This document shows, in pieces, positions 6,936 to 63,903 of a stretch of DNA of 64,000 bases. Source of the stretch: Minisyncoccota bacterium (GTDB lineage Bacteria > Patescibacteriota > Minisyncoccia > Phycocordibacterales > VMEP01); contig JBAZUR010000003.1 of assembly GCA_041661305.1 (NCBI GenBank), forward strand, positions 5,103-69,102, given 5' to 3'. Below the pieces are notes generated by a model. It ran no database searches. It was not told the DNA's origin and worked only from the letters and a program-made list of their open reading frames with translations. Both the position numbers and the translations under genes were made by a program. Positions within the stretch are counted from its first letter, which is position 1, and every line of letters begins with the position of its first letter.

Positions 6936-7008
6936 CCGCCCATAGCTCAGTTGGTAGAGCAGCTCCCTTTTAAGGAGAGGGTCGCAGGTTCGACTCCTGC
7001 TGGGCGGA
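6936..7008 (+). tRNA. tRNA-Lys (anticodon TTT)
   Basis: Cloverleaf folded by hand. Acceptor stem CCGCCCA/TGGGCGG, D-arm GCTCAGTTGGTAGAGC, anticodon loop CTTTTAA, T-arm GCAGGTTCGACTCCTGC. CCA is not encoded. Confidence 0.85.
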
Positions 7009-7032
7009 CAAGGTTAAACTAAATAGGCTGTT

Positions 7033-7486: not shown

Positions 7487-7996
7487 ATGAGGAAAAGAAA
7501 TATATATTTAATATTAAACGATATTCGAAGCGCTCATAACGTCGGCTCTATGTTTAGGACGGCTGATACGGTGGGGATTAAAAGAATTTTTTTGACCGGA
7601 TACACACCGCGACCGGTTGATCGCTTCAATAGACCAGTAAAAGAAATTGCAAAAACAGCTCTTGGTGCAGAAAAAACTATTTCATGGGAGCACGAATTAG
7701 ACGTACTAAAAGTAATTCAAAATTTAAAAAAAGAAAAGGTAGAAATTATTGCCTTAGAACAATCACCTAAAGCAGTAGATTATAAAAAAGTTAAAATAAA
7801 AAATGACACAGCTTTTATTGTTGGTAACGAAGTGCTCGGAATTTCGGAAGAAATTATCAAAGTTGTAGATGTTGTCGCCGAAATTCCAATGCAGGGAAAA
7901 CTTGCCAGAGATCGTTCGTCGGACGATAAAGGAAAAGAATCACTTAATGTTTCGGTTGCTTTGGGCGTTGCTCTTTTTAGGATTTTAGATATCTAA
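7487..7996 (+). CDS. SpoU/TrmH family RNA 2'-O-methyltransferase
   Basis: ILNDIRSAHNVGSMFRTADTVGI and the FIVGNEVLGIS motif of the SPOUT class. Confidence 0.75.
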   Translation: MRKRNIYLILNDIRSAHNVGSMFRTADTVGIKRIFLTGYTPRPVDRFNRPVKEIAKTALGAEKTISWEHELDVLKVIQNLKKEKVEIIALEQSPKAVDYKKVKIKNDTAFIVGNEVLGISEEIIKVVDVVAEIPMQGKLARDRSSDDKGKESLNVSVALGVALFRILDI

Positions 7997-12739: not shown

Positions 12740-12956
12740 GGAGGGAGGAAAAAAAGAGGGGGGATCGGTCACGAATAATTTTGAAGACATATTAGTTCAT
12801 CGGTCACGAGTTACTAAATTTTTATTTCGCTTTGTTCGAAGTAGTTTCTCGGACATAATCAGTAATCGCCTCTCGCATTGCTATGCTCGAAACCTACACT
12901 CGCTCTTCGCGAGTTGCGGCCCGCGGTTCGGTTCCTGCCGAGACAAGATAGTAAAA

Positions 12957-12996
12957 ATATAAAGTGGTCACATAAGTATATGTGACCACTTTATAT
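12957..12996. terminator. 17-bp perfect palindrome (atataaagtggtcacat/atgtgaccactttatat) plus T-run; terminator of the minus-strand tRNA-Arg
   Basis: Perfect inverted repeat with a 6-nt loop, immediately 3' of the tRNA on the minus strand and followed by T's. Confidence 0.6.
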
Positions 12997-13003
12997 TTTC
13001 ATG

Positions 13004-13075
13004 TGCCCTCGGCAGGAATCGAACCTGCATCACAAGTACCGCAAACTTGAATCCTATCCATTGAACGACGAGGGC
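13004..13075 (-). tRNA. tRNA-Arg (anticodon read as GCG, unusual)
   Basis: Minus-strand cloverleaf. Acceptor GCCCTCG/CGAGGGC, anticodon stem CAAGT/ACTTG, loop TTGCGGT, T-arm GCAGGTTCGATTCCTGC. Confidence 0.7.
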
Positions 13076-13143
13076 AAACTCTATTTAACACATAAGATAT
13101 AACATACAACAGGCAAAATCGCCATTACTTGTCTAATTTTTAC

Positions 13144-13608
13144 CTAAAAACCAAAATTCTCGAAAATTTTTTGAGCTATCGGTTCATGTAATGTTTTTTC
13201 CTCCAAAAACTCTTTTAGTAAGTTAACTACATTTTCTTGGTTGGTATCCCCAAGTGGAATTACAAGAAGTGGCATAAGAAGGCGCGTTGATTGAAGTAGT
13301 AATTTTTTGTTGATTGAGTCGTCTGAAATACAAAAAGCCTCAAGGTTTTCGTATGGATATAAAACTCCACCAGAACGTACTCCTTTCTCGCTAATTTCAA
13401 AAAGAATCGGCGAAGGTTTTTTGTTTGCGTGTGTTGCTATGGCAAAAGCGGAGAGAAGGATAAGAAATGAAAATAAAACATTTCCATAGATGAAAGCTGC
13501 AACACTTCCTGAAACAGCTACAATCCAAAGAGCCCAAAACCAATCAGGATCTTTATGGTTGTGTTCGTACTCTGTTGCAATCCAAGAAATTTTTTGAGGA
13601 GCAATCAT
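13144..13608 (-). CDS. Hypothetical membrane protein
   Basis: Two N-terminal transmembrane segments. No recognisable motifs. Confidence 0.4.
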   Translation of the reverse strand: MIAPQKISWIATEYEHNHKDPDWFWALWIVAVSGSVAAFIYGNVLFSFLILLSAFAIATHANKKPSPILFEISEKGVRSGGVLYPYENLEAFCISDDSINKKLLLQSTRLLMPLLVIPLGDTNQENVVNLLKEFLEEKTLHEPIAQKIFENFGF

Positions 13609-13761
13609 CTAAATATTATAACAGAAGACAAGGAATTTAGAATTTGCAATGTAACTTTTTGGGGAGTTTTTAGGTTTTAATAAATGAAAGGTCGAAAACG
13701 AAATAAATGGCGGTGGGGCGGACTTCGACTGTCGCGCTCTTCCGTGTTGTATAATACGGAC

Positions 13762-14346
13762 ATGGCATTAAGTGAAGTAGAAGAAATAGAAGGGGTACTT
13801 TCTGATGAAGAAATACTGTATCGGTCTATTGAAAACCCCAGCTATTTTGCAGAAATAGTCGATCGATATCAGACAGCACTACTTCGAAAAGCGAATATGA
13901 TGCTCCGTAACGAAGAAAATGCGGAAGATGCTGTGCAAGAAGCTTTTGTAAAAATATACGCAAACGCATCGCGTTTTAAAGAAGTCCCTGGAGCAACCTT
14001 TAAGTCATGGGCGTATAAAATCCTTGTTAACACCTGCCTCACGCTTTTAAAGAAGAACAAAAGAGAAAAAGAAGTTTTTGTTGCGCTTGACCCAGAACTT
14101 GCCGAAGTGATTGCCGACCCGATAGACCTTTCGTATATTGATAAAAAGCTTTCCACAGACCATTTAATGTCTTTAGTGTCACGACTTTCGGAGACGTTAA
14201 GGCGCACCGTGACATGGCACACTGTTGACGATCTTTCTTATCAAGAGATTGCAGAGAAAGAAGGGGTGACAGAAGGTGTCGTGCGAGCGAGAATGCATCG
14301 AGCCAAAAAAGAACTTAAGAAAATAAATGAATCATTCGAAACGTAG
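13762..14346 (+). CDS. ECF-type RNA polymerase sigma factor (sigma-70 regions 2 and 4)
   Basis: Region 2 AEDAVQEAFVKIY....FKSWAYKILVN and region 4 LSYQEIAEKEGVTEGVVRARMHRAKKEL. Confidence 0.75.
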   Translation: MALSEVEEIEGVLSDEEILYRSIENPSYFAEIVDRYQTALLRKANMMLRNEENAEDAVQEAFVKIYANASRFKEVPGATFKSWAYKILVNTCLTLLKKNKREKEVFVALDPELAEVIADPIDLSYIDKKLSTDHLMSLVSRLSETLRRTVTWHTVDDLSYQEIAEKEGVTEGVVRARMHRAKKELKKINESFET

Positions 14347-14701
14347 TTTAAAAAATATGGAACAAATAAATAAAATTAAAGAAAAGGTAATGTGGAGAGT
14401 TCACTTCATCTACAAAACAAGGAGAATTTTAAACTCACCGCTTTTCCCGTTGGTTTTTCTTGTTGTTTCAGCGGGAGCACTAAGTGTTTTGGTTTCTATC
14501 CAGCATGTGATTGAGAATACCCCAAAGAATTTTGATTTTGTAAGACAATACCAGTTTTGGTTTTCTGCGGTTTCAAACACAGAGCTTGCGGTGAAAGCAA
14601 CATTGCTCGTGGCACTGTTTCTTCTAGTGGTTGAGGTACGCAATATTCTAGGGTCTTTGCAGGTGTTTAAACATTCCCGTCAAACTTTAAGTGTTTCGTA
14701 A
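14327..14701 (+). CDS. Putative membrane anti-sigma factor
   Basis: Overlaps the stop of the sigma-factor gene. Single transmembrane segment. Assignment is by position only. Confidence 0.35.
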   Translation: MNHSKRSLKNMEQINKIKEKVMWRVHFIYKTRRILNSPLFPLVFLVVSAGALSVLVSIQHVIENTPKNFDFVRQYQFWFSAVSNTELAVKATLLVALFLLVVEVRNILGSLQVFKHSRQTLSVS

Positions 14702-14840
14702 CAAATAAATTTATTGCCTAGTTATAATAGGCATGAAGAAGGCACTTTTTGAAAAAATTATAGAAAGACGAACTCCAACGTAAAGGGGAAGCGCCTATTG
14801 GCGCTATGCATAAAAACTTCATAACACACCAGGTTAAAGA

Positions 14841-14869
14841 AAAAGCCACCGCGAAGGTGGCTTTTTTTG
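14841..14869. terminator. Bidirectional terminator (aaaaagccaccgcgaaggtggcttttttt)
   Basis: Inverted repeat flanked by an A-run and a T-run, between convergent genes. Confidence 0.7.
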
Positions 14870-14879
14870 TGGGAGGCTC

Positions 14880-15308
14880 TTACTTATGATCAGCTATCTC
14901 TCTACGAAGAGCGTTGTCATAGTTTTGCATGAGGTCTAGGAACCAAAAACCAAAGAAGAACTCGCAAAACATCAGAAGGAGTCCCCATCCAAAATACGGC
15001 AGAAACACTTCCGTTGCGATGATGGTCGCCGTGAACAGGGTAAGCACAGTCACTTGGGTGTGCCAGTTTCTGTTCGGAAAAATGAAGCGGGAGATTTCCC
15101 AGCACAGCAGAAGGAAAAACAGAGGGAGTACACCAAAATTCACCCACATTTGGTCTAGAACGAACCTTACTTTTGTGGGTAAAAAGAATCCCCAGCGGTA
15201 CAGCGCTCGGGCGTGCTGGTTTTGCCTGATACCGTCGTCAATGATAAACGATAGCTTTTGAAACCAGTTCAGGTCAGGGCGGTTTGCGTATGTCGACAAG
15301 ATATTCAC
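14880..15308 (-). CDS. Hypothetical membrane protein (GC-richer)
   Basis: Three to four transmembrane segments. The overlapping ORFs in other frames are composition artefacts. Confidence 0.4.
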   Translation of the reverse strand: MNILSTYANRPDLNWFQKLSFIIDDGIRQNQHARALYRWGFFLPTKVRFVLDQMWVNFGVLPLFFLLLCWEISRFIFPNRNWHTQVTVLTLFTATIIATEVFLPYFGWGLLLMFCEFFFGFWFLDLMQNYDNALRREIADHK

Positions 15309-15389
15309 GGTTACTCCTTTCGATTTAAGAAGGTACGTTAAGCTAAGGAAAAATTAGCATGAACGGGAGAAGAAAGAAACCTTTGTGGT

Positions 15390-15692
15390 TTAAAATTCAC
15401 GTTTTCCTTCCCATGGGAACGTATGATAGTTGACCGTGAGTTCTTCACCAGACTCTATGTTTTTAGTTGCTATAAAATATATATTTTTACCAGTGACTGC
15501 TAACTGCATATTTGGGGTATTGCTGTGATTAGCGAACTTCCCCAACTCTGTTCGTGCGTAATCATGGTCAGGATTACCAGTATTATTTTGGTGAACAAAA
15601 GAAAGGCCGATACTTTCGTTTTCTAATATTGGTCTGGTGGAGAAGACCCCTTTTCCTGATATTGGCGAAGCTTTAATGTTGTAGTTGTTCAT
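15390..15692 (-). CDS. SET-domain protein (putative protein-lysine methyltransferase)
   Basis: SPISGKGVFSTRPI, the FANHSNTPN (NHSC-like) motif, and the post-SET-like GEELTVNY. Confidence 0.7.
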   Translation of the reverse strand: MNNYNIKASPISGKGVFSTRPILENESIGLSFVHQNNTGNPDHDYARTELGKFANHSNTPNMQLAVTGKNIYFIATKNIESGEELTVNYHTFPWEGKREF

Positions 15693-15885
15693 TGTTGCTA
15701 CTATTTAAGCGAGGGGTGAGATTCGGTCACGAGTAAATTTCCTGGCGGAAATTTCTCTCGACCCCAGCTCGCCATTTTTGCCTTTGCTTCGCAAAACAAA
15801 AATAAGGCTGTGCTTTTCGAATCTCACACGCGAGCAAAGCAGTTTGCTCGCTCCCATCCGCAGCTTTTCGCTGCGCTTCAATTTG

Positions 15886-15970
15886 CGGATGGGGTGAGAT
15901 TCGAACTCACGGTACCTTGCGGTACGCTAGTTTTCAAGACTAGTGCTTTAGACCACTCAGCCACCCATCC
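15886..15970 (-). tRNA. tRNA-Ser (anticodon TGA)
   Basis: Acceptor GGATGGG/CCCATCC, anticodon stem CTAGT/ACTAG with loop CTTGAAA, long variable arm, T-arm GTGAGTTCGAATCTCAC. Confidence 0.85.
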
Positions 15971-16072
15971 GTTAAAATCAGTTATTAAACCGAAGTAGGC
16001 CTATCATAGCAAAAATGCTCAAGCTGGCAATTATCTCTCGGCAGAGTTTGTTTTTTGAAGTAAGATACCTTT

Positions 16073-16489
16073 ATGCGACTTTTAGGAATTGATTATGGTG
16101 GGAAGCGGATTGGTCTGGCTCTTTCCGACGAAACTCACAGCTTAGCTTTTCCTTTTAAGGTTGTTCTTAATGGAAAAACCATAATAGAGGAGTTGAAAAA
16201 AATATGTGACGAAAATAGTGTCTCGGGGGTTGTCATTGGTGAGTCACGCGACGACAAAGGAAAAGAAAATGAAATAATGGTTGCCGTGCGTGAATTTGCT
16301 GGCGTCATTCAAAAAGAAACAGGACTGCCGGTTTTTTTTGAACAAGAGTATCTGACTTCGGTTGAAGCACACAGAATTTCTTTTTTTGAGCAAGGGAGAC
16401 AAAAGGGTAAGGATATTGATGCTGCCGCGGCGACATTAATTTTACAAAGGTATTTGGATAAGAGAAATGCAGGTAATTCCAAATTTTAA
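16073..16489 (+). CDS. ruvX: Holliday junction resolvase-like protein RuvX/YqgF
   Basis: N-terminus MRLLGIDYGGKRIGLALSD. Confidence 0.8.
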   Translation: MRLLGIDYGGKRIGLALSDETHSLAFPFKVVLNGKTIIEELKKICDENSVSGVVIGESRDDKGKENEIMVAVREFAGVIQKETGLPVFFEQEYLTSVEAHRISFFEQGRQKGKDIDAAAATLILQRYLDKRNAGNSKF

Positions 16490-16577
16490 ATTTCAAAATA
16501 AATAATCCAAATGACTTAATTCAAAAAAGACTGCATTAAAACATTGTTTAAAAATTAAAAACTTAGAATTAAAAATT

Positions 16578-16904
16578 ATGATAAATATTGATGATTTCAA
16601 AAAACTAGAAATAAAAATTGGCACAATTCTTTCAGCTGAGAAAGTTCCCGATGCGGATAAACTAATAAAATTCTCCGTTGATTTAGGGGAAGAAGCACCG
16701 CGCACTATTTTGTCGGGTATTGCTTCACATTATTCTGACCCAGCTGTTTTGGTGGGGAAGCAGGTGCCAATACTCTCCAACTTAGAGACACGTACAATCC
16801 GGGGAATTGAGAGCCAAGGAATGATTTTATATGCTGTTGGTGAAGATATGCTTACGACTATAGAACCAGGAGTTAAGGTTACTCCAGGAACAAAGGTTGC
16901 CTAA
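16578..16904 (+). CDS. tRNA-binding domain protein (CsaA/Trbp111/EMAP-like OB fold)
   Basis: FKKLEIKIGTILSAEKVPDADKL...SQGMILYAV. Confidence 0.75.
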   Translation: MINIDDFKKLEIKIGTILSAEKVPDADKLIKFSVDLGEEAPRTILSGIASHYSDPAVLVGKQVPILSNLETRTIRGIESQGMILYAVGEDMLTTIEPGVKVTPGTKVA

Positions 16905-16907
16905 ACC

Positions 16908-17504
16908 ATGAGAGATTTTTTTGATAATACTCGCGATAAGCTTCACAGGTGGACCATGCACCATAGCTCAAAAGAAAGCGCTCCGTGGTGGCTTGCCGGT
17001 ATTTCTTTTGCTGAATCATCTTTTTTCCCTATTCCACCAGATCTTTTTCTTTCCGCGATATTGATTGCAAAAAAAGGCGCAAGTTGGTTTAGGCTCGCAC
17101 TTATCACAACTGGAGCAAGTGTGGTCGGGGGGTTATTTGGGTACTTGATAGGATATTCTTTCTTTAGTTTAATCGGAGCCCCACTAATTTCTTTTTATCA
17201 CGCCGAAGATGCCTTTCATCAAGTTGAACAGCTTTTTTCTGGTAATGCTTTTTTGGCTATATTTCTCGCGGCTTTTACACCGATTCCTTACAAGGTTTTC
17301 ACAATAGCTGCTGGTTTTTTTAAAATAAATTTACTTACGTTTATTGTTGCTTCGTTCATTGGTCGAGGTATGAGATTTTTTGTTGTGGCATATCTATTCA
17401 AAACATTTGGAGAAAAAATCGGAAGTCTTGTTTATCGCTATTTTAATATTGCGGCAATAATTTTTGCTATTCTTTTGGTTGTTCTTGTTATCTACGTTTT
17501 CTAA
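16908..17504 (+). CDS. DedA/YqaA family membrane protein
   Basis: Multi-transmembrane protein with a PDLFLSAILIAKKG...GA..GY.IGY pattern. Confidence 0.6.
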   Translation: MRDFFDNTRDKLHRWTMHHSSKESAPWWLAGISFAESSFFPIPPDLFLSAILIAKKGASWFRLALITTGASVVGGLFGYLIGYSFFSLIGAPLISFYHAEDAFHQVEQLFSGNAFLAIFLAAFTPIPYKVFTIAAGFFKINLLTFIVASFIGRGMRFFVVAYLFKTFGEKIGSLVYRYFNIAAIIFAILLVVLVIYVF

Positions 17505-17533
17505 AAGAAGTTTGTGCCGTATAATATTAACAA

Positions 17534-18616
17534 ATGAACGCACTCGAAAAGTTCTTTCCTGTTCCAGAGTACATGGCTATGCCGGCTATCGGCCTTGATA
17601 TTTCTGATCAATCAATTCGCTTTTTGGAACTAGAAAGAAAAGGTAGTCATTTCTCTATTGGACGCTACGGCGAAAAGAAAGTTCACAAAGGATTAATGGA
17701 GGCAGGGAAGCTTAAAGATATTTCTGGAATGAAAGAAGTGCTCCGTGTCATAGGGACAGAACAAAAATTTTCTTTTACTAATGTTTCACTTTCTGAAGAA
17801 GAAGCTTACTTATTCCGCATGAAAGTACCACGAGTTAGATTGAGAGAATTAAGAGGGAGTATCGATCTTCAACTTGAAAACTATGTTCCACTCAAGGCGA
17901 GCGAAGTTGTTTTTGATTATGAAATAATCAGCGAGGACGAAAGTGGTTATGATATTGAAGTTTCTGTTTTACCAAAAGGAGTGGCTCAAAACTACTTTGA
18001 TTTGTTTGAGGGAACTAATTTAACACCCCTTGTTTTTGAAATTGAAGCGCAAGCTATCGCGAGGGCAGTTATAAAAAGAAAAGACAAAAGAACTTACATG
18101 GTGGTTGATTTTGGCGAAACCAGAACTGGAATATCCGTTGTGAGTGAAGGTGTGCTGATGTTTACTTCAACACTCGATGTTGTGGGGGGGCACTCACTTA
18201 ACGAAGCAATTGAAAAGAGCTTCAAGGTATCTCCCGAAGAAGCAGAGTTAATGAAGAGGGAGAAAGGGATTAGAAAAAGTGCTGGCAAGAATGACCTCTT
18301 TCAGGCTCTTATTGGACCAATCTCTGTTTTGCGCGATGAAATAAATAAACACTATGTCTATTGGCATACATACAAAGAGGGTGGTGGAAAAGACAAAGAG
18401 AAGATTGAAAAAATAATTCTTTGCGGAGGGGATGCTAACTTACTTGGGTTAACAGATTATCTTTCTGCAAGTCTTAAGGTCCCTGTTGAGCGCGCTAATA
18501 TTTGGACTAACGTTGATTATAGAGACGGTTTTATTCCAGAGATAGAATTTAATGACTCACTTCGTTATGCCACCGCAGTTGGCTTGGCCTTGGGTGGTTT
18601 TTGGGGACATGATTAA
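17534..18616 (+). CDS. pilM: Type IV pilus assembly protein PilM
   Basis: Actin-like ATPase fold, IGLDISDQSIRFLELE at the N-terminus, about 360 aa, followed by pilN/pilO-like genes. Confidence 0.75.
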   Translation: MNALEKFFPVPEYMAMPAIGLDISDQSIRFLELERKGSHFSIGRYGEKKVHKGLMEAGKLKDISGMKEVLRVIGTEQKFSFTNVSLSEEEAYLFRMKVPRVRLRELRGSIDLQLENYVPLKASEVVFDYEIISEDESGYDIEVSVLPKGVAQNYFDLFEGTNLTPLVFEIEAQAIARAVIKRKDKRTYMVVDFGETRTGISVVSEGVLMFTSTLDVVGGHSLNEAIEKSFKVSPEEAELMKREKGIRKSAGKNDLFQALIGPISVLRDEINKHYVYWHTYKEGGGKDKEKIEKIILCGGDANLLGLTDYLSASLKVPVERANIWTNVDYRDGFIPEIEFNDSLRYATAVGLALGGFWGHD

Positions 18617-19142
18617 CTTAATTCCAAAAGAAGAAAAAATACAGATTACCGAAGAATATCGACGGAGGCTTTTGGTCGTTTTCTTCCTTCTCTTGTTGTG
18701 TACTGGAGCCATTGCCATTCTGTTGTCTTTGCCAACTTATATTTTATTTGAGAGTAAATATAAAACAGTATTAGATAGTCTTGATGTGGCGAAACATCTT
18801 TCTCTTGAGCGTCGCGACGCTGAGACAGAACTTGCTGTACGAGATTTAAATGACCGTGTTTCGGTAATACTTTCTCCGGTTCAAAAACGTAGTGTTGTGG
18901 AGATTGTTTCAGTTGTTGTTTCAAAAAAAGTTGATGGCGTGTACATACAGAGAATTTCTTACGACGCAGCTCAAAATAGCGGTAACGTTTCAATTAGTGG
19001 TGTCGCCTTGAGTAGAGACAAAGCACTTTCTTTTGTTAAAGCCCTTGAGAGTGCACAAATTTTTTCTAAAATTGATTTACCTGTCGGAAGTTTGGTTAAA
19101 GAAAAAAACTTAGATTTTATAATTTCTGCAACCTTAAAATAA
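18609..19142 (+). CDS. pilN: PilN-like pilus assembly protein
   Basis: Overlaps the pilM stop. Single N-terminal transmembrane segment plus coiled-coil. Confidence 0.5.
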   Translation: MINLIPKEEKIQITEEYRRRLLVVFFLLLLCTGAIAILLSLPTYILFESKYKTVLDSLDVAKHLSLERRDAETELAVRDLNDRVSVILSPVQKRSVVEIVSVVVSKKVDGVYIQRISYDAAQNSGNVSISGVALSRDKALSFVKALESAQIFSKIDLPVGSLVKEKNLDFIISATLK

Positions 19143-19143
19143 A

Positions 19144-19677
19144 ATGATAAAAGGAAGAAAAACCAAACAAATACTAGGATTGATGATTGGGTTGAATATC
19201 TTGGTTTTTTCAGTATGTGGGGCCGTTGTTTATACGATGCAAAATAAAGAAAAAGATATACAAAGAGCAGTTAACGAATTGGCTAAATATTCTGAAGGAC
19301 AAAAAGAAACTTCTTACCTAAAAAGAACTCTCGACAGTCTTTCAAAAGAGAGAGCTAAGCTTGATTTGTATTTTATTACCAACCGCGACATCGTTCGTTT
19401 TATTGAGCAAATAGAAGCGCTTGGGGTTGAAGCAAGCGCGCCCGTAAAAATTTCGACCGTGGAAGTTGAAAGTGTAAGCTCTTTAAAGGTTGATTTCACT
19501 AGTAGTGGAACTTTTTCTCAGCTTTTTCACTTAGCTTCCTTGCTTGAATCTTTACCGTTTGAGGTTGTTATTAATAGATTTAATATTAGTAAAGAAAGTG
19601 TAAAAGATATTTCACCAAAGGAGACAAAATGGAACGCTGAGTTCTCTATAGTTCTAAAAGGGTTTCTTAATAAGTAA
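19144..19677 (+). CDS. pilO: PilO-like pilus assembly protein
   Basis: Position after pilMN. N-terminal transmembrane segment, coiled-coil, then an alpha/beta domain. Confidence 0.45.
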   Translation: MIKGRKTKQILGLMIGLNILVFSVCGAVVYTMQNKEKDIQRAVNELAKYSEGQKETSYLKRTLDSLSKERAKLDLYFITNRDIVRFIEQIEALGVEASAPVKISTVEVESVSSLKVDFTSSGTFSQLFHLASLLESLPFEVVINRFNISKESVKDISPKETKWNAEFSIVLKGFLNK

Positions 19678-19686
19678 AATTTATTT

Positions 19687-20031
19687 ATGGAATTATCAAT
19701 TTACAAACAAAAAACCAAAAACAGACTAGAGAGAATTCTTCGTTGGTTTGACCGTGACCCAGAAAGAATCGAGCTTCGGGCGACCAGAGATTGGAACCTA
19801 ATGCTTATATTTTTTATTCTTATTAATATATTAATATTAATAACGACGACCATTTTCTTTTTTTCTATAAACAAAAGAGAGCTTCTCCCTGTATCTGAAT
19901 TGTCGACTGATTCAATTGCTCGACTTGATAAAGGAAAGGTTGAGAAGGCTGCGGGTGTTATTGAAAAAAGGGAGGCTGGACTTCAGGATCTTTTAAAGTC
20001 ACCACCAAAAATTGTTGACCCTTCTCTTTAG
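19687..20031 (+). CDS. Hypothetical small membrane protein (possibly part of the pilus operon)
   Basis: Single transmembrane segment. No recognisable motifs. Confidence 0.3.
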   Translation: MELSIYKQKTKNRLERILRWFDRDPERIELRATRDWNLMLIFFILINILILITTTIFFFSINKRELLPVSELSTDSIARLDKGKVEKAAGVIEKREAGLQDLLKSPPKIVDPSL

Positions 20032-20055
20032 ACAGGGTAGAGTCGTTGAGTGCTT

Positions 20056-20130
20056 GCCCCTGTAGTTCAATGGATAGAACTGCGGACTTCTAAGCCGTTA
20101 ATGGAGGTTCGATTCCTCCCGGGGGCACCA
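20056..20130 (+). tRNA. tRNA-Arg (anticodon TCT), CCA encoded
   Basis: Acceptor GCCCCTG/CGGGGGC, anticodon loop CTTCTAA, T-arm GGAGGTTCGATTCCTCC, terminal CCA. Confidence 0.85.
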
Positions 20131-20142
20131 AATAAAAATACT

Positions 20143-20296
20143 CGCTTAAGCGAGTGTTTTTATTTGGTGCCAGCCGGAGCGCGACGGCGCGAGGCGGGGT
20201 CGAGCAAATTTCTAGCAAGAAATTATGCGTGACCACCAAAGAGCTTAAGCGAGTGTTTTTATTTGGTGCCAGCTGGAGCGCGACGGCGCGTTAACC
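20143..20296. repeat. Two direct copies of a ~50-bp unit (cttaagcgagtgtttttatttggtgccagcYggagcgcgacggcgcg) at 20143-20192 and 20247-20296. Each contains an inverted copy of the tRNA-Arg(TCT) 3' end.
   Basis: 49 of 50 nt identical between the two copies. The first copy forms a cruciform with the tRNA 3' end (ggcaccaaataaaaa...tttttatttggtgcc). Confidence 0.75.
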
Positions 20297-20324
20297 CGTG
20301 ACCTTCTCGAAGGGCTTAGTTTAT

Positions 20325-20400
20325 TGGTGGGCGGTACAGGACTCGAACCTGTGACCTTCTCGGTGTAAACGAGTTGCTCTACCAACTGAGCTAACCGCCC
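20325..20400 (-). tRNA. tRNA-Val (anticodon TAC), CCA encoded
   Basis: Reverse complement gives GGGCGGTTAGCTCAGTTGGTAGAGC...anticodon loop TTTACAC...ACAGGTTCGAGTCCTGTACCGCCCACCA. Confidence 0.85.
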
Positions 20401-20563
20401 ACCAATAAACGAAACACTTTTTGTAAACGGGAAAAGTGCAACTTTTCCCTCCACCAACTGAGCTAACCGTCCTAAACAAATTTAGGGTACCGTATCTTGC
20501 AAGATAAATCAATTTGCTTAGAGAAAACTTGCTCTGTATTTAATCCCGTCTATAATTTCACAA

Positions 20564-20851
20564 ATGAAAGAACGCTTAGAATGCAGGATTACCGGGCGGG
20601 TCCAGCTCGTAATGTTTCGTGATTTTACGCAAAGGAAAGCATCTGCTTTAGGGTTGGGTGGTACTGTAGAGAACAAAAGAGATGGGTCAGTAGTTGTAGT
20701 AGCTGAGGGGGAACACAGCAAGCTAGAGCAATTATTGCTATTATTAAGAAGTGGCTCAATACTTTCTCGTGTTGATAATGTTGAAGCCAAGTGGTTAGAT
20801 GCGACTGGTGAATTTTCTGATTTCAAGATAGTGTATTACGGAAATGAATAA
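20564..20851 (+). CDS. acyP: Acylphosphatase
   Basis: ITGRVQLVMFRDFT...GLGGTVENKRDGSVVVVAEG. Confidence 0.8.
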   Translation: MKERLECRITGRVQLVMFRDFTQRKASALGLGGTVENKRDGSVVVVAEGEHSKLEQLLLLLRSGSILSRVDNVEAKWLDATGEFSDFKIVYYGNE

Positions 20852-21557
20852 CATTTTTTCAAAAACAAAAGCACCCAAGACCGTTGGTATTATTATGGAC
20901 GGCAATCGCAGATGGGCTAAGGCTAAGAATCTTGCTGTTTACGAAGGGCACCACGCTGGCTATGAGAAGTTGAAGGATTTTGCTAAATGGGCAAGAGAAG
21001 CGGGTGTAAAAAATGTAATCGCCTTTGCTTTTTCAACAGAAAATTGGGAGAGAAAAAAGCACGAAGTTGATTTTCTCCTCGCGCTCTTTAGGAGAATGGT
21101 TATAGAAGAGGCGGAAGAATTAAAAAAAGAAAAAGCACGTATTGTTTTCTTAGGGGACTTAGATAGATTTCCAAGGGATATTGTTATGGCGGCAAGAAAA
21201 CTTGAAGAAGAAACCGCAAAGTTTGCAAAGAACCAAACAATAGGACTTGCGGTTTCGTACAGTGGAAGATCCGAGATAATTTCTGCCATTAAAAAACTTG
21301 TTAAGGAGAAGGGTGTATCAGCGATACAGAAATTGGACGAGAAAATGTTCTCTTCTTTTCTTTTTACAAAAGATATTCCAGATCCAGACCTAATCATTCG
21401 AACAAGTGGTGAGGTTAGGCTTTCTGGTTTCTTGCCTTGGCAAGGTGTTTATAGTGAACTTTTTTTCACTAAAACAAATTGGCCTGCTTTAACGAAAAAA
21501 GAATTTTATAAAATACTAACCGAATATGTTTCCCGCGAAAGGAGACTTGGAAAATAA
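20844..21557 (+). CDS. uppS: Undecaprenyl diphosphate synthase
   Basis: GIIMDGNRRWAK and AFSTENWER motifs. Confidence 0.85.
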   Translation: MNNIFSKTKAPKTVGIIMDGNRRWAKAKNLAVYEGHHAGYEKLKDFAKWAREAGVKNVIAFAFSTENWERKKHEVDFLLALFRRMVIEEAEELKKEKARIVFLGDLDRFPRDIVMAARKLEEETAKFAKNQTIGLAVSYSGRSEIISAIKKLVKEKGVSAIQKLDEKMFSSFLFTKDIPDPDLIIRTSGEVRLSGFLPWQGVYSELFFTKTNWPALTKKEFYKILTEYVSRERRLGK

Positions 21558-22310
21558 ATGGCTGCCCCTAAAATTTTATATGAAGACGAGGATGTTCTGG
21601 TGATAAATAAGCCGGCGGGGATTATGGTGCATGGAGATGGACGAACAAAAGATAAAACCATCTCAGATTGGATTCTAAAAACACGCCCAGAAATGAAAGA
21701 GATTGGTGAGCCAGCACGATTTCACAGTAAAGATGGTTCTATAAAAATAATAAATCGCCCAGGCATCGTTCATCGTTTAGATAAAGACACAACCGGTGTG
21801 CTTATTATCGCTAAAAATACCCACGCTTACAGATTTTTAAAAAAACAGTTTAGAGAGCGAAGTATAAAGAAAACATATATCGCTGTAGTTCATGGTTCTG
21901 TAAAAAACGAACGCGGTGTTATTGATAGACCAATTGGAAGAAGCTCTGCTGATTTTAGAAAGAGGTCTGCCTCGCGTGGAGCTAAGGGTGATTTGCGTCA
22001 GGCTGTGACCACATACAAAACCGTCGGACATATTGAGAAAAAAGTTGGAGGAGAGATAAAAAAATATTCACTACTTGAATTATTTCCAAAAACAGGACGA
22101 ACTCACCAAATTAGGGTGCACCTTAAAGCGATAGGACACCCAATTGTTTGTGACAATTTATATGCAGGGAAGCTAGGGGGAGGGCTTTCTTTTGACAGGC
22201 CAGCTCTACATGCTCGGGACATAAGCTTTTTACTGCCATCCGGGAAAAACAGTACAGTAGAAGCTCCTGTACCGACAGATTTCGAGGGGGCTATTAAATC
22301 TGTTGCATAG
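21558..22310 (+). CDS. RluA-family pseudouridine synthase
   Basis: Catalytic HRLDKDTTGVLIIAK motif. Confidence 0.8.
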   Translation: MAAPKILYEDEDVLVINKPAGIMVHGDGRTKDKTISDWILKTRPEMKEIGEPARFHSKDGSIKIINRPGIVHRLDKDTTGVLIIAKNTHAYRFLKKQFRERSIKKTYIAVVHGSVKNERGVIDRPIGRSSADFRKRSASRGAKGDLRQAVTTYKTVGHIEKKVGGEIKKYSLLELFPKTGRTHQIRVHLKAIGHPIVCDNLYAGKLGGGLSFDRPALHARDISFLLPSGKNSTVEAPVPTDFEGAIKSVA

Positions 22311-22341
22311 TATCATTTCGTGTGTTAGATTACCTTTCGTT

Positions 22342-22767
22342 ATGGCAACTATGAATGTAAAACTTTCTCCAGTAGATGTGGAGGCAAGAAAGAAGCTAGA
22401 TATCCGCGCGGGCGACACTGTTCGTGTGTGGACTAAAATCAAAGAAAAAGATGGCAAGACTCGCCTTCAAGGTTTTGAGGGTATAATTTTATCGCGTAAA
22501 CACGGACTTGAGTCAGGCTCTATGTTTACAGTTCGTCGCGTTGCAAGTGGTGTTGGTGTTGAGAAAATTTTTCCACTTTATTCTCCGTCTATCGATAAGG
22601 TAGAAATCATTCGTCGAGCAAAAGTTAGACGAGCAAAATTGTATTATGTTCGCGAAAAAGCAGCAAAAGAAATTAAGAGAAAAATGAGAAGCGAATTGTA
22701 TAAAGGTATTCCAATTGGAAAAGAAACAGAAGCAGAAGTAGTTGAAACAGAAACTAAGTCAGAGTAA
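22342..22767 (+). CDS. rplS: 50S ribosomal protein L19
   Basis: AGDTVRVWTKI...GFEGIILSRKHG...VGVEKIFPLYSP...RRAKLYYVRE. Confidence 0.85.
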   Translation: MATMNVKLSPVDVEARKKLDIRAGDTVRVWTKIKEKDGKTRLQGFEGIILSRKHGLESGSMFTVRRVASGVGVEKIFPLYSPSIDKVEIIRRAKVRRAKLYYVREKAAKEIKRKMRSELYKGIPIGKETEAEVVETETKSE

Positions 22768-22816
22768 GATGAAGGAGCTCACGAAAGTGAGCTCCTCTCT
22801 TTAATGGGGGAAATAT

Positions 22817-22901
22817 GCCCAGGTGGAGAAATTGGTAGACTTACTACCTTGAGGTGGTAGCGCCGCAAGGCATGGGGGTTCGAGTCCCCCCCTGGGCACC
22901 A
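22817..22901 (+). tRNA. tRNA-Leu (anticodon GAG), class II with long variable arm, CCA encoded
   Basis: Acceptor GCCCAGG/CCTGGGC, anticodon stem CTACC/GGTAG with loop TTGAGGT, T-arm GGGGGTTCGAGTCCCCC, CCA. Confidence 0.85.
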
Positions 22902-22911
22902 AAAATATAAT

Positions 22912-22937
22912 CCGGCTTCGTGCCGGTTTTTATTTTT
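22912..22937 (+). terminator. Terminator (ccggcttcgtgccgg + T-run) after tRNA-Leu
   Basis: Inverted repeat plus T-run. Confidence 0.65.
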
Positions 22938-23040
22938 GGTCTAGGGGAATCGAAAGCCGGAGTGATATTTCAAAAAGTTTTCCTCCTTACTTTTTGAAAT
23001 CACGAGGTGGGGTCGAGAGTACTTATGAGCGAAGCGAATT

Positions 23041-23074
23041 AGTAACTCGTGACCGAGTCCCCCCCCTTGGGCAC
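23041..23074. repeat. Duplicate of the tRNA-Leu 3' end (cgagtccccccccttgggcac) fused to the junction motif ttagtaactcgtgac
   Basis: 19/21 match to tRNA-Leu positions 22875-22898. The adjacent 18-mer is shared with 12797-12825 (reverse complement) and, partially, with 15736-15750. Confidence 0.7.
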
Positions 23075-23283
23075 AAAGCGTTAAGAAAACATGCTAGGGA
23101 TAGCATGTTTTTAGCTTTGTGAGGCGGAGGTCGACGGACCGAGCCGGGCCGTCCACAGGTGTCCATCAACCACCGATGGACTTCGCGAAAATTTTCAGCA
23201 GAAAATTATCTGTGACCCAAAAACACAATAATGGACATGGCTAAGAAATTTTTACGAGAGACGACGAGTAAAAATGTTCTTAG

Positions 23284-23296
23284 TCGAGCCCCCCCC
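23284..23296. repeat. Second degenerate copy of the tRNA-Leu T-arm/acceptor (tcgagcccccccc)
   Basis: Short match to the tRNA-Leu 3' region, followed by a T-run. Confidence 0.4.
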
Positions 23297-23354
23297 TTTT
23301 TTTTATACAAAAAACAAAGGACCCCTTACGGGGTCCTTACTCAAAAGGAACTTC

Positions 23355-23822
23355 TTACTCTCTGCCGATACGGACGTCTGGCGCATGTCGTACGACATTT
23401 GTTCCCATGAAGCAGGAGAGGTGGGCGAACAGTTTTCGTTTATATACCTCTCCTGAAATTGAGGCAGCGAAGACGATGATATCTTCTCCTTTTGTCGAGA
23501 AGCCGCACAAATTACAGCTCCTTTGGAATGATGGCTCGGATACGCCGGTTATCGCCATTGTCGCCATAACAATATCGTAACGAGCCTTGAAGTGCGGATT
23601 TTCGTCCAAGAAACATTTTGTGTGATGCCGTTCGGCGTGAATGTCTTTCGGGTAGAAGACTAGCACTACCTCCTTTCCAGTGGTTGATTCAAGACATTCT
23701 TTGCATGGTAATTCTCCGTGCTCACTGCCCCTAGAGACTCTCCCGTGTTTCGTTCTTTTGATCATTATGCATCTCCTTTTCTTATCGAATGAACCTTTTT
23801 TCAGCTGGCGAAGAGTATACAC
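23355..23822 (-). CDS. Hypothetical CxxC...CxxC zinc-finger-like protein (GC-rich)
   Basis: Cysteine pairs CKEC and CNLC. GC-rich relative to the rest of the window. Confidence 0.35.
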   Translation of the reverse strand: MYTLRQLKKGSFDKKRRCIMIKRTKHGRVSRGSEHGELPCKECLESTTGKEVVLVFYPKDIHAERHHTKCFLDENPHFKARYDIVMATMAITGVSEPSFQRSCNLCGFSTKGEDIIVFAASISGEVYKRKLFAHLSCFMGTNVVRHAPDVRIGRE

Positions 23823-23906
23823 CCATGTTTAATATTTTTCCATTTTATAGCTTTTAGTTAAAAAAACCCTTTGATGTTATCGCAGGGTTTTTTCCACGAG
23901 GCCTAG

Positions 23907-24593
23907 CTAGTGGTGGTGATAGTGGTCGTGCCCACAATGGTCATGACCAGTGCTTGGTTTGACTAGGAGTCGGCGCAGGGCGATGAAGAGAATGAGTCCA
24001 CCCAAAAAGAACGAAAGTATCGGATCAATGATGGTAACCCCAGTCATCCAGATAGCGATACCGCCAAATATGACAAGCACGCTTGCGCCGGTGTCGACAA
24101 CGATATGGAGCTCTTGCCACCAATGCGTTTCGTTTTTATGTTCCTCGTGCGCGTTGATGTGCATGAAGTACATAAAAAGATTCGCAACAAGACCAACAAA
24201 GCCAAGCATGATCATGTACCCCACCTGTATTTCGTGCGGGTTTGCCACTCGGTCCGGAGCTTCGATGACGATGATCCATAGAGCGACGCCGATAAGCAGA
24301 ATTGCACTGAGGTACCCGCCACGCCGGCGAAGCATTTTCTCGTCCGTACTTGTCCTGGCGCGCTTGGACACAATCATGGAAACGAAGCTCTCGGACCCAT
24401 CCACAAGCACGTGGAACGAGTCGGAAATGAGAGCCAAGCTTCCAAAGAAAATGCCACCAAGGAGTTCGACAAGGAAAAGACCAAACGAAATCATTGTGAG
24501 GCTCATGTAGTGCAGAACCTCTTCTTCGCAACGACAGTCGCTTTGCTGTCCCGTTTTAAGGAACTGACAAGCGGCAATATGGTTGTTTTGCAC
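23907..24593 (-). CDS. Cation diffusion facilitator (CDF) family transporter: transmembrane domain only, His-rich C-terminal tail
   Basis: Six transmembrane segments with CDF motifs (HVLVDGSESFVSMI, IEAPDRVANP). Ends in GHDHCGHDHYHHH and has no cytoplasmic C-terminal domain. GC-rich. Confidence 0.65.
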   Translation of the reverse strand: MQNNHIAACQFLKTGQQSDCRCEEEVLHYMSLTMISFGLFLVELLGGIFFGSLALISDSFHVLVDGSESFVSMIVSKRARTSTDEKMLRRRGGYLSAILLIGVALWIIVIEAPDRVANPHEIQVGYMIMLGFVGLVANLFMYFMHINAHEEHKNETHWWQELHIVVDTGASVLVIFGGIAIWMTGVTIIDPILSFFLGGLILFIALRRLLVKPSTGHDHCGHDHYHHH

Positions 24594-24687
24594 GAGACAC
24601 CTACCTTTCTCAAAGAGTTAAACTAGTCGAACTTTACGATTAAATTATTATTTCGTCAACCTATCTCTAAGATGATACGATTGTCTT

Positions 24688-25218
24688 ATGTTGTACACAC
24701 GAAAAGGAGACAAAGGGATGACTGGAACATTTGGCTGTGACCAAAAAATGTCTAAGAGTTCGGCTATCGCTGAGGCTCTCGGAACGCTTGATGAAATTAA
24801 TTCTTTTCTTGGTGTTTGCAAGGTGCTTTCGAGGGATTTAAAAACCGAGGAAATAATAAATAGAGTCCAACAAAATCTTTTTATCGTACAGGCAGAACTT
24901 GCTGGGTCAGACAAAACAATTGACGAAGAAAAAGTAAAAGAAGTTGAGGAGATTATTGACGGGATTGAAAAAGAACTACCTCCAATAAAAACTTTTTTTG
25001 TTTCAGGAGGGACAGAGCTTGCCTCTAGTTTTGACTTTGCGCGTACCTTATCAAGGAGAGCTGAGAGGAGAGTGGTGGCGGTTGTTGAAGAGGGAGAGGT
25101 AAAAGTTGGAGAACAAACACTCGCTTATTTAAATCGGTTATCCTCACTTCTTTACGCGCTCGCTAGACTTTCGAACAAAAATTCTGGTATAACTGAGCAG
25201 TCGCCTACATATAAATAA
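24688..25218 (+). CDS. PduO-type ATP:cob(I)alamin adenosyltransferase family protein
   Basis: YTRKGDKGMTG...IAEALGTLDEINSFLG, characteristic of the PduO/MMAB family. Confidence 0.75.
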   Translation: MLYTRKGDKGMTGTFGCDQKMSKSSAIAEALGTLDEINSFLGVCKVLSRDLKTEEIINRVQQNLFIVQAELAGSDKTIDEEKVKEVEEIIDGIEKELPPIKTFFVSGGTELASSFDFARTLSRRAERRVVAVVEEGEVKVGEQTLAYLNRLSSLLYALARLSNKNSGITEQSPTYK

Positions 25219-25232
25219 AGCGACTGATATAT

Positions 25233-25308
25233 GGTGCCTATAGTGTAATGGTTAGCACTAGAGTTTGTGGAACTCTCAGTTCGGGTTCAAATCCCGATAG
25301 GCACCCCA
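25233..25308 (+). tRNA. tRNA-His (anticodon GTG) with encoded G-1 and CCA
   Basis: G-1 + GTGCCTA acceptor pairing with TAGGCAC, discriminator C, anticodon loop TTGTGGA, T-arm TCGGGTTCAAATCCCGA. Confidence 0.85.
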
Positions 25309-25354
25309 AAATAACGAGACGAACGCGTATGCGTTCGGTGACTATATTTAGGGA

Positions 25355-25372
25355 GTGCCTATCGGGATTTGA
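25355..25372. repeat. Inverted 18-nt copy of the tRNA-His 3' end (gtgcctatcgggatttga)
   Basis: Perfect reverse complement of tRNA-His 25287-25304. Confidence 0.75.
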
Positions 25373-25469
25373 AAGACGGAGCCAGTACACAAGACGAGCG
25401 AAGCGAGTGCTTGTCGGCGAGTCCGGGGAGAAAGTTCTTAGCGAGTCTGCGAGCTTAGAAACTTGACCC

Positions 25470-25490
25470 CAAATCCCGATAGGCACCCCA
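25470..25490. repeat. Direct 21-nt copy of the tRNA-His 3' end including CCA (caaatcccgataggcacccca)
   Basis: Identical to 25288-25308. Together with the tRNA it brackets a ~165-bp GC-rich insert. Confidence 0.8.
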
Positions 25491-25540
25491 AATTCAATCC
25501 ATAACTTGACGGTTTTTGTGTTTATGGCGACACTGGGTTA

Positions 25541-31326: not shown

Positions 31327-31355
31327 GTTTTCTTGCCCCTATATCCACATTTTGC

Positions 31356-31469
31356 TCTTAAAAACATTGCGCAGGCTGGCGAGCCGAGCATATGATTTAG
31401 GCGAAATCATGTCGCGCGCCCGTCCATTAACGCGCGACTCTTTCAGTAGGCGGATATGCGCGTTTTTAA
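31356..31469. repeat. Copy 1 of a two-copy GC-rich intergenic element with 8-bp terminal inverted repeats TTAAAAAC/GTTTTTAA (miniature inverted-repeat-like, or a small structured RNA)
   Basis: The 5' ~38 nt and the 3' 22 nt (aggcggatatgcgcgtttttaa) are shared with 63808-63878. The internal part has hairpins (atgattt/aaatcat and gtcgcgcg/cgcgcgac). Confidence 0.55.
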
Positions 31470-31488
31470 GGGCAAAATAAAAGAGACA

Positions 31489-63706: not shown

Positions 63707-63807
63707 ATCGGGCTATTGTAAGAAAAAAAGCCGTTATGTCAACGTTTAGGATAATTATGGAATGCAGAATTAAGGAATTTTGCATTTTGATATCTCCGGC
63801 TTTTATT

Positions 63808-63878: not shown

Positions 63879-63903
63879 AAACAAAGGCCAAAAAGAAAGA
63901 TTA

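Follow-up and report, generated by a model that had tools for sequence, protein, structure and literature searches.

Probable miniature mobile elements at the 3' ends of tRNA genes in a Minisyncoccota genome and in metagenome contigs

Downstream of five of the seven tRNA genes in a 64-kb stretch of the genome of a Minisyncoccota bacterium (GenBank assembly GCA_041661305.1, contig JBAZUR010000003.1, positions 5,103 to 69,102; hereafter, the window), we identified small GC-rich inserts bracketed by copies of the 3' part of the adjacent tRNA. These inserts follow tRNA-His, tRNA-Leu, tRNA-Ser, tRNA-Arg(GCG) and tRNA-Arg(TCT) (tRNA genes were called with ARAGORN and Rfam) and share one layout, which reads, in the tRNA sense: tRNA, A/T-flanked hairpin/terminator module, inverted copy of the tRNA 3' part, GC-rich core and direct copy of the tRNA 3' part. 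The core-side end of the inverted copy is the complement of T54 of the tRNA, and that of the direct copy is C56; the hairpin between the tRNA and the inverted copy is terminator-like and often bidirectional. A single unit is about 150-250 bp long, and the full insert behind a tRNA takes up about 150-400 bp. The copies of the tRNA 3' ends around the inserts are real and far exceed the chance expectation. We consider it probable that the inserts represent a family of miniature, protein-less, non-autonomous mobile elements that target the T-loop, replace the 3' end of the invaded gene and are mobilized in trans. The evidence comes from their architecture, fixed boundaries, insertion polymorphism, shuffling of modules among tRNA species, covariation in the core, folding of the sense strand only, and wide distribution.

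At tRNA-His (GTG; 25234-25308, plus strand; T54 at 25286, C56 at 25288), the 17-mer CAAATCCCGATAGGCAC occurs at exactly three sites, namely, within the tRNA (25288), in inverted orientation (25355) and as a direct copy (25470), with none expected (100 shuffles); the direct and inverted 3' copies claimed for this tRNA in a preliminary description of the same DNA, made from the sequence alone, are thus borne out. The direct repeat comprises 23 of 23 identical nt (25288-25310 vs 25470-25492, repeat finder), and the displaced copy at 25470-25492 extends from C56 through CCA. Between the two repeats, all on the plus strand, are a hairpin module (AAAATAACGAG - CGAACGCGTATGCGTTCG - GTGACTATATTT; 25309-25351), also found 3' of other tRNA species in metagenome contigs; the inverted copy (25352-25373; 22 nt, 95%), which consists of an acceptor 5'-strand mimic, a T-stem 5'-strand mimic and ATTTGAA, and ends at the complement of T54; and a core that folds into a variant three-way junction (AGACGGAG .. 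CGAGTCCG .. GGGGAG..CTTGACCC; 25374-25469). Cores were located first by regular expression and then with a covariance model, which matches the His element at 25364-25477 (E = 5e-6). The 3' part of this tRNA gene, from C56 on, would be supplied by the element.

The same components recur at the other four tRNAs. tRNA-Leu (GAG; 22817-22901, plus strand; C56 at 22881) is followed, on the same strand, by unit 1 (22902-23074; covariance model E = 3e-9), which includes a bidirectional terminator hairpin, t1 (22912-22926), the inverted copy GGGGAATCGAA (22944-22954), a core with a P2 hairpin and a P3 hairpin, 'module A', with the GTGACC end (22955-23054), and the displaced tRNA 3' copy (23054-23074). 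The model match spans 22947-23059, plus a composite second unit; units 2-3 (23072-23296) contain the hairpin module t2 (CACAAAGC..GCTTTGTG; 23072-23121), a composite core with the end CTGTGACC (23122-23217), the hairpin module D (23244-23281) and a degenerate T-loop/T-stem remnant, GTCGAGCCCCCCCC (23283-23296). tRNA-Arg(TCT) (20056-20130, plus strand) precedes an array (20131-20309) that starts with a terminator hairpin and continues with an inverted copy of the tRNA 3' terminus, TTTGGTGCC (20163-20171), a canonical core (20172-20234) that gives the best covariance-model match (20162-20244, 83.6 bits, E = 3e-22), the direct copy CACCAAAG (20234-20241), and a second terminator with an inverted copy and a truncated core (20243-20290), joined to an inverted fragment of tRNA-Val (variable loop and T-stem up to GGTT; 20291-20309). 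A 48-nt repeat in this array (20144-20191 vs 20243-20290) is 98% identical and holds the inverted TGGTGCC in each copy.

On the minus strand, tRNA-Ser (TGA; 15885-15970) carries an element at 15713-15884 (covariance model 15715-15825, 58.4 bits, E = 8e-15) that is built of a hairpin (15860-15874), an acceptor 5'-strand mimic (15852-15859), the hairpin H0 (15830-15851), a T-stem mimic with ATTCGAA (15816-15829), a core with the GTGACC end (15725-15815) and the displaced copy CGAATCTCACCCC (GGGGTGAGATTCG on the plus strand; 15713-15725). The element behind tRNA-Arg(GCG) (13003-13075, minus strand) is decayed, with a degenerate core (12745-13002), and retains a perfect 21-bp terminator hairpin (12954-12999), the inverted copy (12926-12942), the 3' end of module A (12800-12817) and another element end, which bears the remnant of a Leu-type T-arm (12756-12774). 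Sequences are shared between loci: the 18-mer TTAGTAACTCGTGACCGA occurs at Leu (23039-23056, plus) and at Arg(GCG) (12800-12817, minus), with 0 expected, and GAGCGAAGCGA occurs only at 23027 and 25396, that is, in the Leu and His inserts (0.01 expected). The preliminary description had listed two copies at Leu, one of them degenerate, an inverted copy at Arg(GCG), inverted copies within a repeat of about 50 bp at Arg(TCT), the two motifs shared between loci and an Arg(GCG) fragment resembling the Leu T-arm, and all of these were recovered; the 13-nt direct copy that it reported for Ser exists as well, at 15713-15725 rather than at 15723-15735, the latter interval being mostly the element end GGTCACGAG.

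The elements are not confined to this genome. A strict pattern derived from the core (CGAAAGNCGGAG..GAGNNNGGGT..GTGACC) retrieved at least 119 metagenome contigs from groundwater, lakes and sediments. Among the matches listed, we analyzed 150 cores (143 distinct) in 124 loci: 122 of the 150 lie no more than 400 nt downstream of a same-strand tRNA, with at least 36 anticodon species represented and a median of 67 nt between the tRNA end and the core; most of the remaining cores follow tmRNA genes or tRNAs containing group I introns, and one is located in the 3' end of a topA-like gene (L056). The elements are always co-oriented with the tRNA. Of the 184 tRNAs in all loci taken together, 90 have an 11-mer inverted copy downstream (up to 1 mismatch) and 74 a direct copy, compared with 2 and 1, respectively, in equal-sized upstream controls. 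The motifs singled out previously appear solely beside tRNA, tmRNA or similar genes.

The boundaries of the elements are fixed. In about 110 first units, associated with 36 anticodon species, the inverted copy runs from the complement of T54 (..CGAA/core, the slash marking the junction) and the direct copy from C56 (GTGAC/C G A..), so that the junction always falls in the T-loop, in agreement with the earlier proposal of attL/attR-like duplications caused by insertion at this site. One refinement of the preliminary description is that the inverted copy belongs invariably to the element itself and exceeds the direct copy by 2 nt. The same 2-nt offset is found at sites other than the T-loop, namely, GG/CACCA at the 3' terminus of tRNA-Arg(TCT) in the window and CA/CAAAAAC in the protein gene of L056. 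Each locus has its own closing inverted repeat, a copy of part of the tRNA invaded, and the direct repeats, 19-77 nt long, end at the gene end: in 46 near-perfect cases, they extend from C56 to the discriminator, with identity ending 0-4 nt beyond, and in L056, the duplication covers the terminal 77 nt of the gene as far as the stop codon, with 95% identity. CCA is present in the displaced copy and missing in the live one in 7 cases, including His of L006, one of the related genomes described below; the reverse was observed in 3. The inverted and distal copies are about equally similar to the live tRNA (8.25/10 and 8.29/10, respectively) and show no mutual compensation; at loci with a decayed distal copy, agreement of the inverted copy with the live tRNA is retained in 23 cases, vs 4. 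A closing helix of inverted and distal copies maintained by selection on RNA was also considered and rejected, the compensation test having shown none. The element thus appears to provide the live 3' end, and the original end of the resident gene would survive, displaced and decaying, as the distal copy.

The core folds as a three-way junction in which the inverted and direct copies pair as P1, H1/P2 includes a GGAG/CGA internal loop, and P3 runs GGTCG...YGTGAC; its conserved ends are ..CGAA/AGNCGGAG and ..YGTGAC/C. In an alignment of 36 sequences, 91.2% of the cells are paired vs 73.0% in shuffles (the observed value was reached in 0 of 500), double-sided changes occupy 184 cells vs 53.7 in shuffles, and pairing in slid-partner controls did not exceed 46.5%. 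Ten of the 15 pairs of P3 covary, and 34 of the 36 sequences have a G.U pair in P3; other conserved features are a tandem G.A loop, an AGCA loop and a bulged A, the last of these invariant. The middle pair of H1 is C-G in 58, A-T in 41, G-C in 28 and T-A in 4 of the 143 cores. In 142 of the 143, the tRNA-sense strand folds better than its complement (-43.0 vs -33.2 kcal/mol), and G.U pairs number 316 on the sense strand vs 94 on the opposite one; therefore, the functional form appears to be a single strand of tRNA-sense polarity. The conserved hairpin H0, typically 37 nt from the core, splits the acceptor mimic from the T-stem mimic exactly at the acceptor/T-stem boundary in many tRNA species. 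The d(GCGAAGC) mini-hairpin (PMC13037366) is present at the tips of module A and of the His core. The earlier suggestion of a miniature element family is supported; the elements are not decayed scars of large integrase islands but are small and uniform, with a conserved, covarying three-way-junction core.

Related genomes, found by a UppS-based scan and through L19 homologues, show how the elements vary. Five syntenic relatives (L004-L008) are about 85% identical to the window at the protein level, and L009 is more distant (79%). In L004-L008, elements are found at the same tRNAs as in the window, with different content and order of modules. Module A (..AGTACTTATGAGCGAAGCGAATTAGTAACTCGTGACC) is located at Leu in the window, L004, L005 and L007, and at Arg(TCT), Arg(GCG) and His in L006; the proximal unit at Leu is t1 or t3 depending on the genome, with stacks t3-t1 in L008 and t1-t2-t3 in L004; and P2 and P3 of the Ser element differ in L006 and L007. 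In accord with the element end shared by different tRNA species that was noted before, the same modules occur beside different tRNAs in different genomes. tRNA-His is occupied in the window and L006, with differing content, and empty in L007 and L008, and none of the 7 tRNAs of L009 is occupied. These polymorphisms of presence, absence and rearrangement indicate that the elements are mobile.

In the window and 39 kb of relatives, the modules occur only beside tRNAs, save two related elements that we denote type II. One, in which a locus-specific inverted repeat, TTTTGCTCTTAAAAAC / GTTTTTAAGGGCAAAA, closes a GC-rich core, is located upstream of secE (31345-31473, plus strand); the other (63790-63886, plus strand), closed by TTTTAAAAC / GTTTTTAAAA, was detected by the covariance model (40.8 bits, E = 1e-9). 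Further type II copies, not next to tRNAs, are present in L007 (9867-9943) and L009 (10401-10476, minus strand). All type II elements share the inner part of the closing repeats (TTAAAAAC/GTTTTTAA), and the outer part differs from locus to locus. In L007, the copy splits the final codons of rluD, a site that is empty in 5 relatives, and the original GTTGCATAG end of the gene, displaced, is still recognizable downstream. The comparison with empty sites proposed in the preliminary description came out in its favor, such sites being present at tRNA-His in L007 and L008, at all 7 tRNAs of L009 and at the 3' end of rluD.

A mechanism consistent with these features can be outlined. The integrated unit consists of the tRNA 3' part (C56 to discriminator), the hairpin/terminator module, the inverted copy, which ends at the complement of T54 and is often split by H0, and the core, with H1 and its tandem G.A loop, the P2 hairpin and the P3 hairpin with the GTGAC end. 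The element would be joined after T55, such that the tRNA is completed by the 3' copy of the element and gains a terminator, whereas the resident 3' end would come to lie farther downstream and decay; further insertions, into the T-loop or the ../CACCA 3' terminus, would produce arrays of stacked units. The transfer form may be a single-stranded circle or linear molecule, in which the 3' copy would pair with the inverted copy to yield a double-stranded replica of the target beside the three-way junction. Strand exchange could be catalyzed in trans by a putative enzyme acting on the tRNA-sense strand as single-stranded DNA (ssDNA), exposed via the lagging-strand template or an R-loop; tRNA genes are highly transcribed and usually co-oriented, and exposure of their sense strand would explain both the orientation of the elements and the choice of target. 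The inverted copy may be kept matched to the tRNA by intrastrand templating.

Several observations weigh against mobility of this kind. No transposase, integrase or reverse transcriptase candidate is linked to the elements in about 0.9 Mb of flanking sequence. Neither an excised circle nor a clean isogenic pair of filled and empty sites was seen, and the empty tRNA-His sites have other downstream genes. How matching direct and inverted arms would be acquired for 36 tRNA species, tmRNA and a protein gene lacks an explanation. Furthermore, covariation in mobile palindromic DNA hairpins can result from templated copying rather than selection, and the invariant G.U pair of P3, the tandem G.A loop, the conserved loops and the mimicry of the tRNA top half suggest something more like a functional RNA.

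The search for the partner enzyme extended well beyond the units themselves, which contain no open reading frame (ORF) in their 150-250 bp. By Pfam, 20 large ORFs of the window represent housekeeping genes only, and clustering of about 1000 ORFs from the flanks of 125 loci yielded only housekeeping neighbors. The full-length copy with an integrase or transposase that the preliminary description suggested looking for did not turn up in the roughly 0.9 Mb of flanks, which is the reason why we propose mobilization in trans. When the 125 loci were screened by regular expression for tyrosine- and serine-type enzymes and for HUH enzymes, one integrase was detected, with no HUH motif and no enrichment. 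This sole tyrosine-integrase-like ORF of the flanks (L095, 574-1713, minus strand) lies about 0.4 kb from an element-bearing tRNA-Ser, on its 5' side; it may belong to an unrelated island or may offer a lead to the trans-acting enzyme. An ORF inside the Arg/Val array of L007 (7137-7583) was considered as a transposase and rejected, given that it resembles a small membrane protein. Two recombination chemistries were likewise discarded: crossover by a serine recombinase at a TT dinucleotide (the junction GTGAC/C has no TT) and a cut of the TT^CGAA type (the overhang is wrong). A full-text literature search found no description of the element family.

A more far-reaching interpretation is that these are a previously unrecognized class of elements, 'programmed' by their target, that move in folded, single-stranded form, be it as ssDNA or as an RNA mimicking a tRNA minihelix. 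In such elements, sense and antisense copies of the tRNA top half would surround the conserved three-way-junction domain, and the RNA variant would hijack tRNA-processing or repair enzymes. We offer this interpretation tentatively and regard it as somewhat doubtful.

The elements could alternatively be structured noncoding RNAs that mimic the top half (acceptor and T arm) of the neighboring tRNA, with the T-loop replaced by the three-way-junction domain; such an RNA would be a tRNA read-through product, processed by tRNA enzymes, with a cellular function or a role as an intermediate of RNA-based (retro- or intron-like) mobility. The strand-specific folding with its excess of G.U pairs, the strong covariation, the near-constant G.U pair, invariant bulged A, tandem G.A loop and AGCA loop, the position of H0 at the acceptor/T-stem junction and the constant co-orientation with the tRNA all fit this possibility, which we nevertheless consider unlikely. 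A hairpin with a T-run, terminator-like and often bidirectional, separates the tRNA from the core, and no promoter-like site was detected inside the elements. The distal strand of the closing helix is decayed, without compensation, in about one-quarter of the copies (the 23 vs 4 cases above), and the acceptor 5'-strand mimic within the inverted copy is present in only 41 of 108 first units (14 in the control). A search of Rfam 15, whose models cover self-cleaving ribozymes, group I and II introns, tmRNA and T-box RNAs among others, returned only tRNAs at the gathering score and nothing credible in the elements at E up to 10. Moreover, the elements are missing at orthologous tRNAs of close relatives and are, therefore, dispensable. 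A hammerhead-type core does not fit, the junction strands being AAA / GG(G) / none, not CUGAUGA / GAAA / H, and neither does an archaeal intron with a bulge-helix-bulge motif in the T-loop, because the sequence cannot be folded into such a motif and the unspliced tRNA is already intact. Judging from sequence features, the G.U pairs, the G.A loop and the top-half mimicry would favor RNA as the active form, whereas the intervening terminator, the missing promoter and the decaying distal arm would favor DNA.

The possibility that the inserts are attL/attR scars of tyrosine-integrase islands or prophages that lost their interior appears very improbable. In size, a complete lambda-type attP is close to the element, which counts in favor of scars, as does the integrase of L095 near an element-bearing tRNA-Ser. 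Islands that integrate into tRNA genes encode their own integrase, usually next to the att site. The resemblance is close: tRNA or tmRNA T-loops as targets, a replacement 3' end carried by the element, a displaced 3' fragment that marks the far end, an identity block that ends at the gene 3' end, and tandem arrays resulting from serial insertion are hallmarks of islands, as exemplified by the tRNA/tmRNA islands with T-loop sublocation in the Islander database (PMC4383910) and by phage Ms6, with its attP in a tRNA T-loop (PMC1762012). However, the units described here are only 150-250 bp long and lack an integrase or any ORF, and no integrase pseudogene or remnant was found in or beside them. 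One core family serves at least 36 tRNA species, includes a constant inverted copy of the target, which classical att sites do not have, and folds into a three-way junction on one strand; independent deletions would not yield 143 distinct cores with one covarying junction and conserved boundaries. The working principle of the proposed mobile elements, T-loop integration with restoration of the gene, would be one already known from islands, with the defining integrase lacking.

Replication template-switching at tRNA/terminator hairpins (quasi-palindrome extension and fold-back duplication), with GC-rich hairpins spread by gene conversion, could account for the long palindromes formed by the tRNA 3' part, the terminator and the inverted copy (with arms of about 45 nt at Arg(TCT) of L004), for the direct - inverted - direct layout and for the inverted copy tracking the live tRNA, but is hardly credible in view of the identical T54/C56 boundaries in more than 100 independent loci, the conservation of core sequence and structure across distant contigs, the strand-specific G.U pairs, which templated copying cannot produce, and the divergence of live and displaced 3' ends just past the discriminator. 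A pure fold-back origin was rejected, the palindromes being interrupted and the G.U pairs strand-specific.

The proposed elements share traits with several other systems. Integron attC sites are imperfect palindromes with R''/R' boxes (RYYYAAC ... GTTRRRY) and a crossover at G/TT that are recognized as a folded single strand, and CTX-type phages integrate as folded single strands. As in these cases, the site seems to be set by the secondary structure of one strand, with strand asymmetry, and like integron cassettes, the units are non-autonomous and form arrays at a fixed chromosomal site. In contrast to the cassettes, they have no R''/R' boxes, no IntI/attI platform and no dif site; their 'cargo' is a tRNA 3' end plus terminator, and their target is a stable-RNA gene. 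Repetitive extragenic palindromes (REP), the bacterial interspersed mosaic elements (BIME) built from them and the palindrome-associated transposable elements (PATEs) derived from IS200/IS605 are moved by Y1 HUH transposases and are likewise small, GC-rich, intergenic hairpin modules, oriented, modular, clustered and protein-less; they are active as single strands, as the proposed elements may be. PATEs and REPs of this kind have subterminal hairpins and insert 3' of a fixed tetra- or pentanucleotide. Only the elements described here, however, duplicate the flank in direct and inverted orientation and replace a gene end, and they show no conserved tetranucleotide target and no GTAG head; no TnpA or REP-associated tyrosine transposase was found in the flank screen. 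The bases preceding the junction vary (TT/C, GG/C, CA/C), and hairpin ends are present; the HUH motif screen covered the flanks only. Own terminal inverted repeats and a short target-site duplication, which define miniature inverted-repeat transposable elements, are absent.

In Neurospora mitochondria, GC-rich palindromes flank tRNA genes. Like the elements described here, such palindromes and the GC clusters of yeast mitochondria (PMC4478555) are GC-rich hairpins that move, by an unexplained mechanism, within a reduced and AT-rich genome and often lie next to tRNA genes. They differ in that they have no sequence relation to the elements, no target-derived arms, no three-way-junction core and no 3'-end replacement. 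The primer-binding site of retroelements is the complement of the 18 3'-terminal nt of a tRNA, including CCA, and lies within an element that encodes a reverse transcriptase or depends on one; the 18-22-nt complement of a tRNA 3' part, bounded by tRNA landmarks, is common to retroviral or long terminal repeat (LTR) elements and the inverted copies. The complement in the latter extends from T54 to about N72, usually without CCA, and lies in cis beside the tRNA gene; the host is a bacterium, there are no LTRs, and no reverse transcriptase was found in the window or flanks.

The metagenome loci include some special cases. In L075, L084 and L097, tRNAs with group I introns (Rfam Intron_gpI, 76-89 bits) are followed by a T-loop element; hence, a single tRNA gene can host two selfish elements. 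L055, L079 and L139 contain a promoter-like TATAAT, followed after about 35 nt (..GAGTTCTGAAAGCCAC.C.GT.GGGTCAC) by a terminator and then by a complete element whose arms resemble tRNA-Glu, and no tRNA was found there by ARAGORN or Rfam; this may be a remnant of tRNA-Glu, with the T-loop region deleted together with part of the element, or a mini-RNA of an unknown kind. Among viral contigs, a looser core pattern produced 25 matches, all of which are chance hits in GC-rich phages without hairpins or tRNA context, and therefore, the element is not obviously phage-borne.

The remaining two tRNAs of the window deserve separate comment. tRNA-Val (20325-20400, minus strand) lies in the same fragment-rich neighborhood as Arg(TCT); 24 nt of its 5' part recur at 20449-20472, on the upstream side in the tRNA sense. 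In L005 and L007 (about 7885-7945 in the latter), the D-loop in this upstream copy is split by a 35-nt GC-rich hairpin (CTTGCCC(C)GTAGCGAGCTTTGCTCTGCTACTGGGG) that is lacking in the window, which makes for a clean filled/empty pair for another small hairpin insertion. The acceptor stem of tRNA-Val is prolonged by pairing of the 5' leader (TTTATTGGT) with the 3' trailer including CCA (ACCAATAAA) over 26 nt with 88% complementarity (20310-20335 / 20394-20419). The gene at 6936-7009 (plus strand), the only window tRNA without an adjoining tRNA copy or element-related sequence, was called by ARAGORN as 'tRNA-Stop, anticodon tta'. Its anticodon loop, CTTTTAA, is typical of tRNA-Lys(UUU), and the syntenic tRNA of L009, beside DoxX, was assigned as Lys(ttt). 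Rather than a suppressor, the gene at 6936-7009 probably encodes a normal tRNA-Lys in which one pair of the anticodon stem is mismatched. Elsewhere in the window, an isoleucyl/valyl-type class I tRNA synthetase of 1153 aa (37370-40831, plus strand) contains a complete histidine-phosphatase domain (His_Phos_1, residues 498-667) between its catalytic and anticodon-binding parts.

The window sequence is not an assembly artefact, because contigs of 3 other, independent samples, ERZ27249449, SRR18595301 and SRR6484324, are 100% identical to it. The short-read Logan contigs L002 and L003, from the same population, begin inside the His element (window positions 25389-25401), and one ends at 31392, within a type II element; such repeats fragment assemblies, hence these breaks. 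The elements thus interrupt short-read assemblies, with Logan contigs ending inside them, and the tRNA fragments that they carry confuse annotation and island finders.

The Patescibacteria, or candidate phyla radiation (CPR), have some of the smallest known bacterial genomes, and in the 12.7-kb stretch of the window that holds the five loci, this one element family takes up about 10% of the sequence and most of the tRNA loci. The proposed mobile elements would be non-autonomous and would enter essential, single-copy stable-RNA genes harmlessly, by providing a replacement 3' end and a terminator; this would extend the paradigm of the tRNA gene as an integration site down to about 200 bp, with the target possibly recognized by means of a double-stranded replica that the element itself carries. 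The conserved, covarying structure can be used in experimental work on RNA or ssDNA recognition, and should a partner enzyme be found, the system could serve as a programmable, tRNA-site-specific integration tool. If the target-programmed class is real, nearly every tRNA, tmRNA and even the 3' ends of protein genes could be colonized in reduced CPR genomes without being inactivated.

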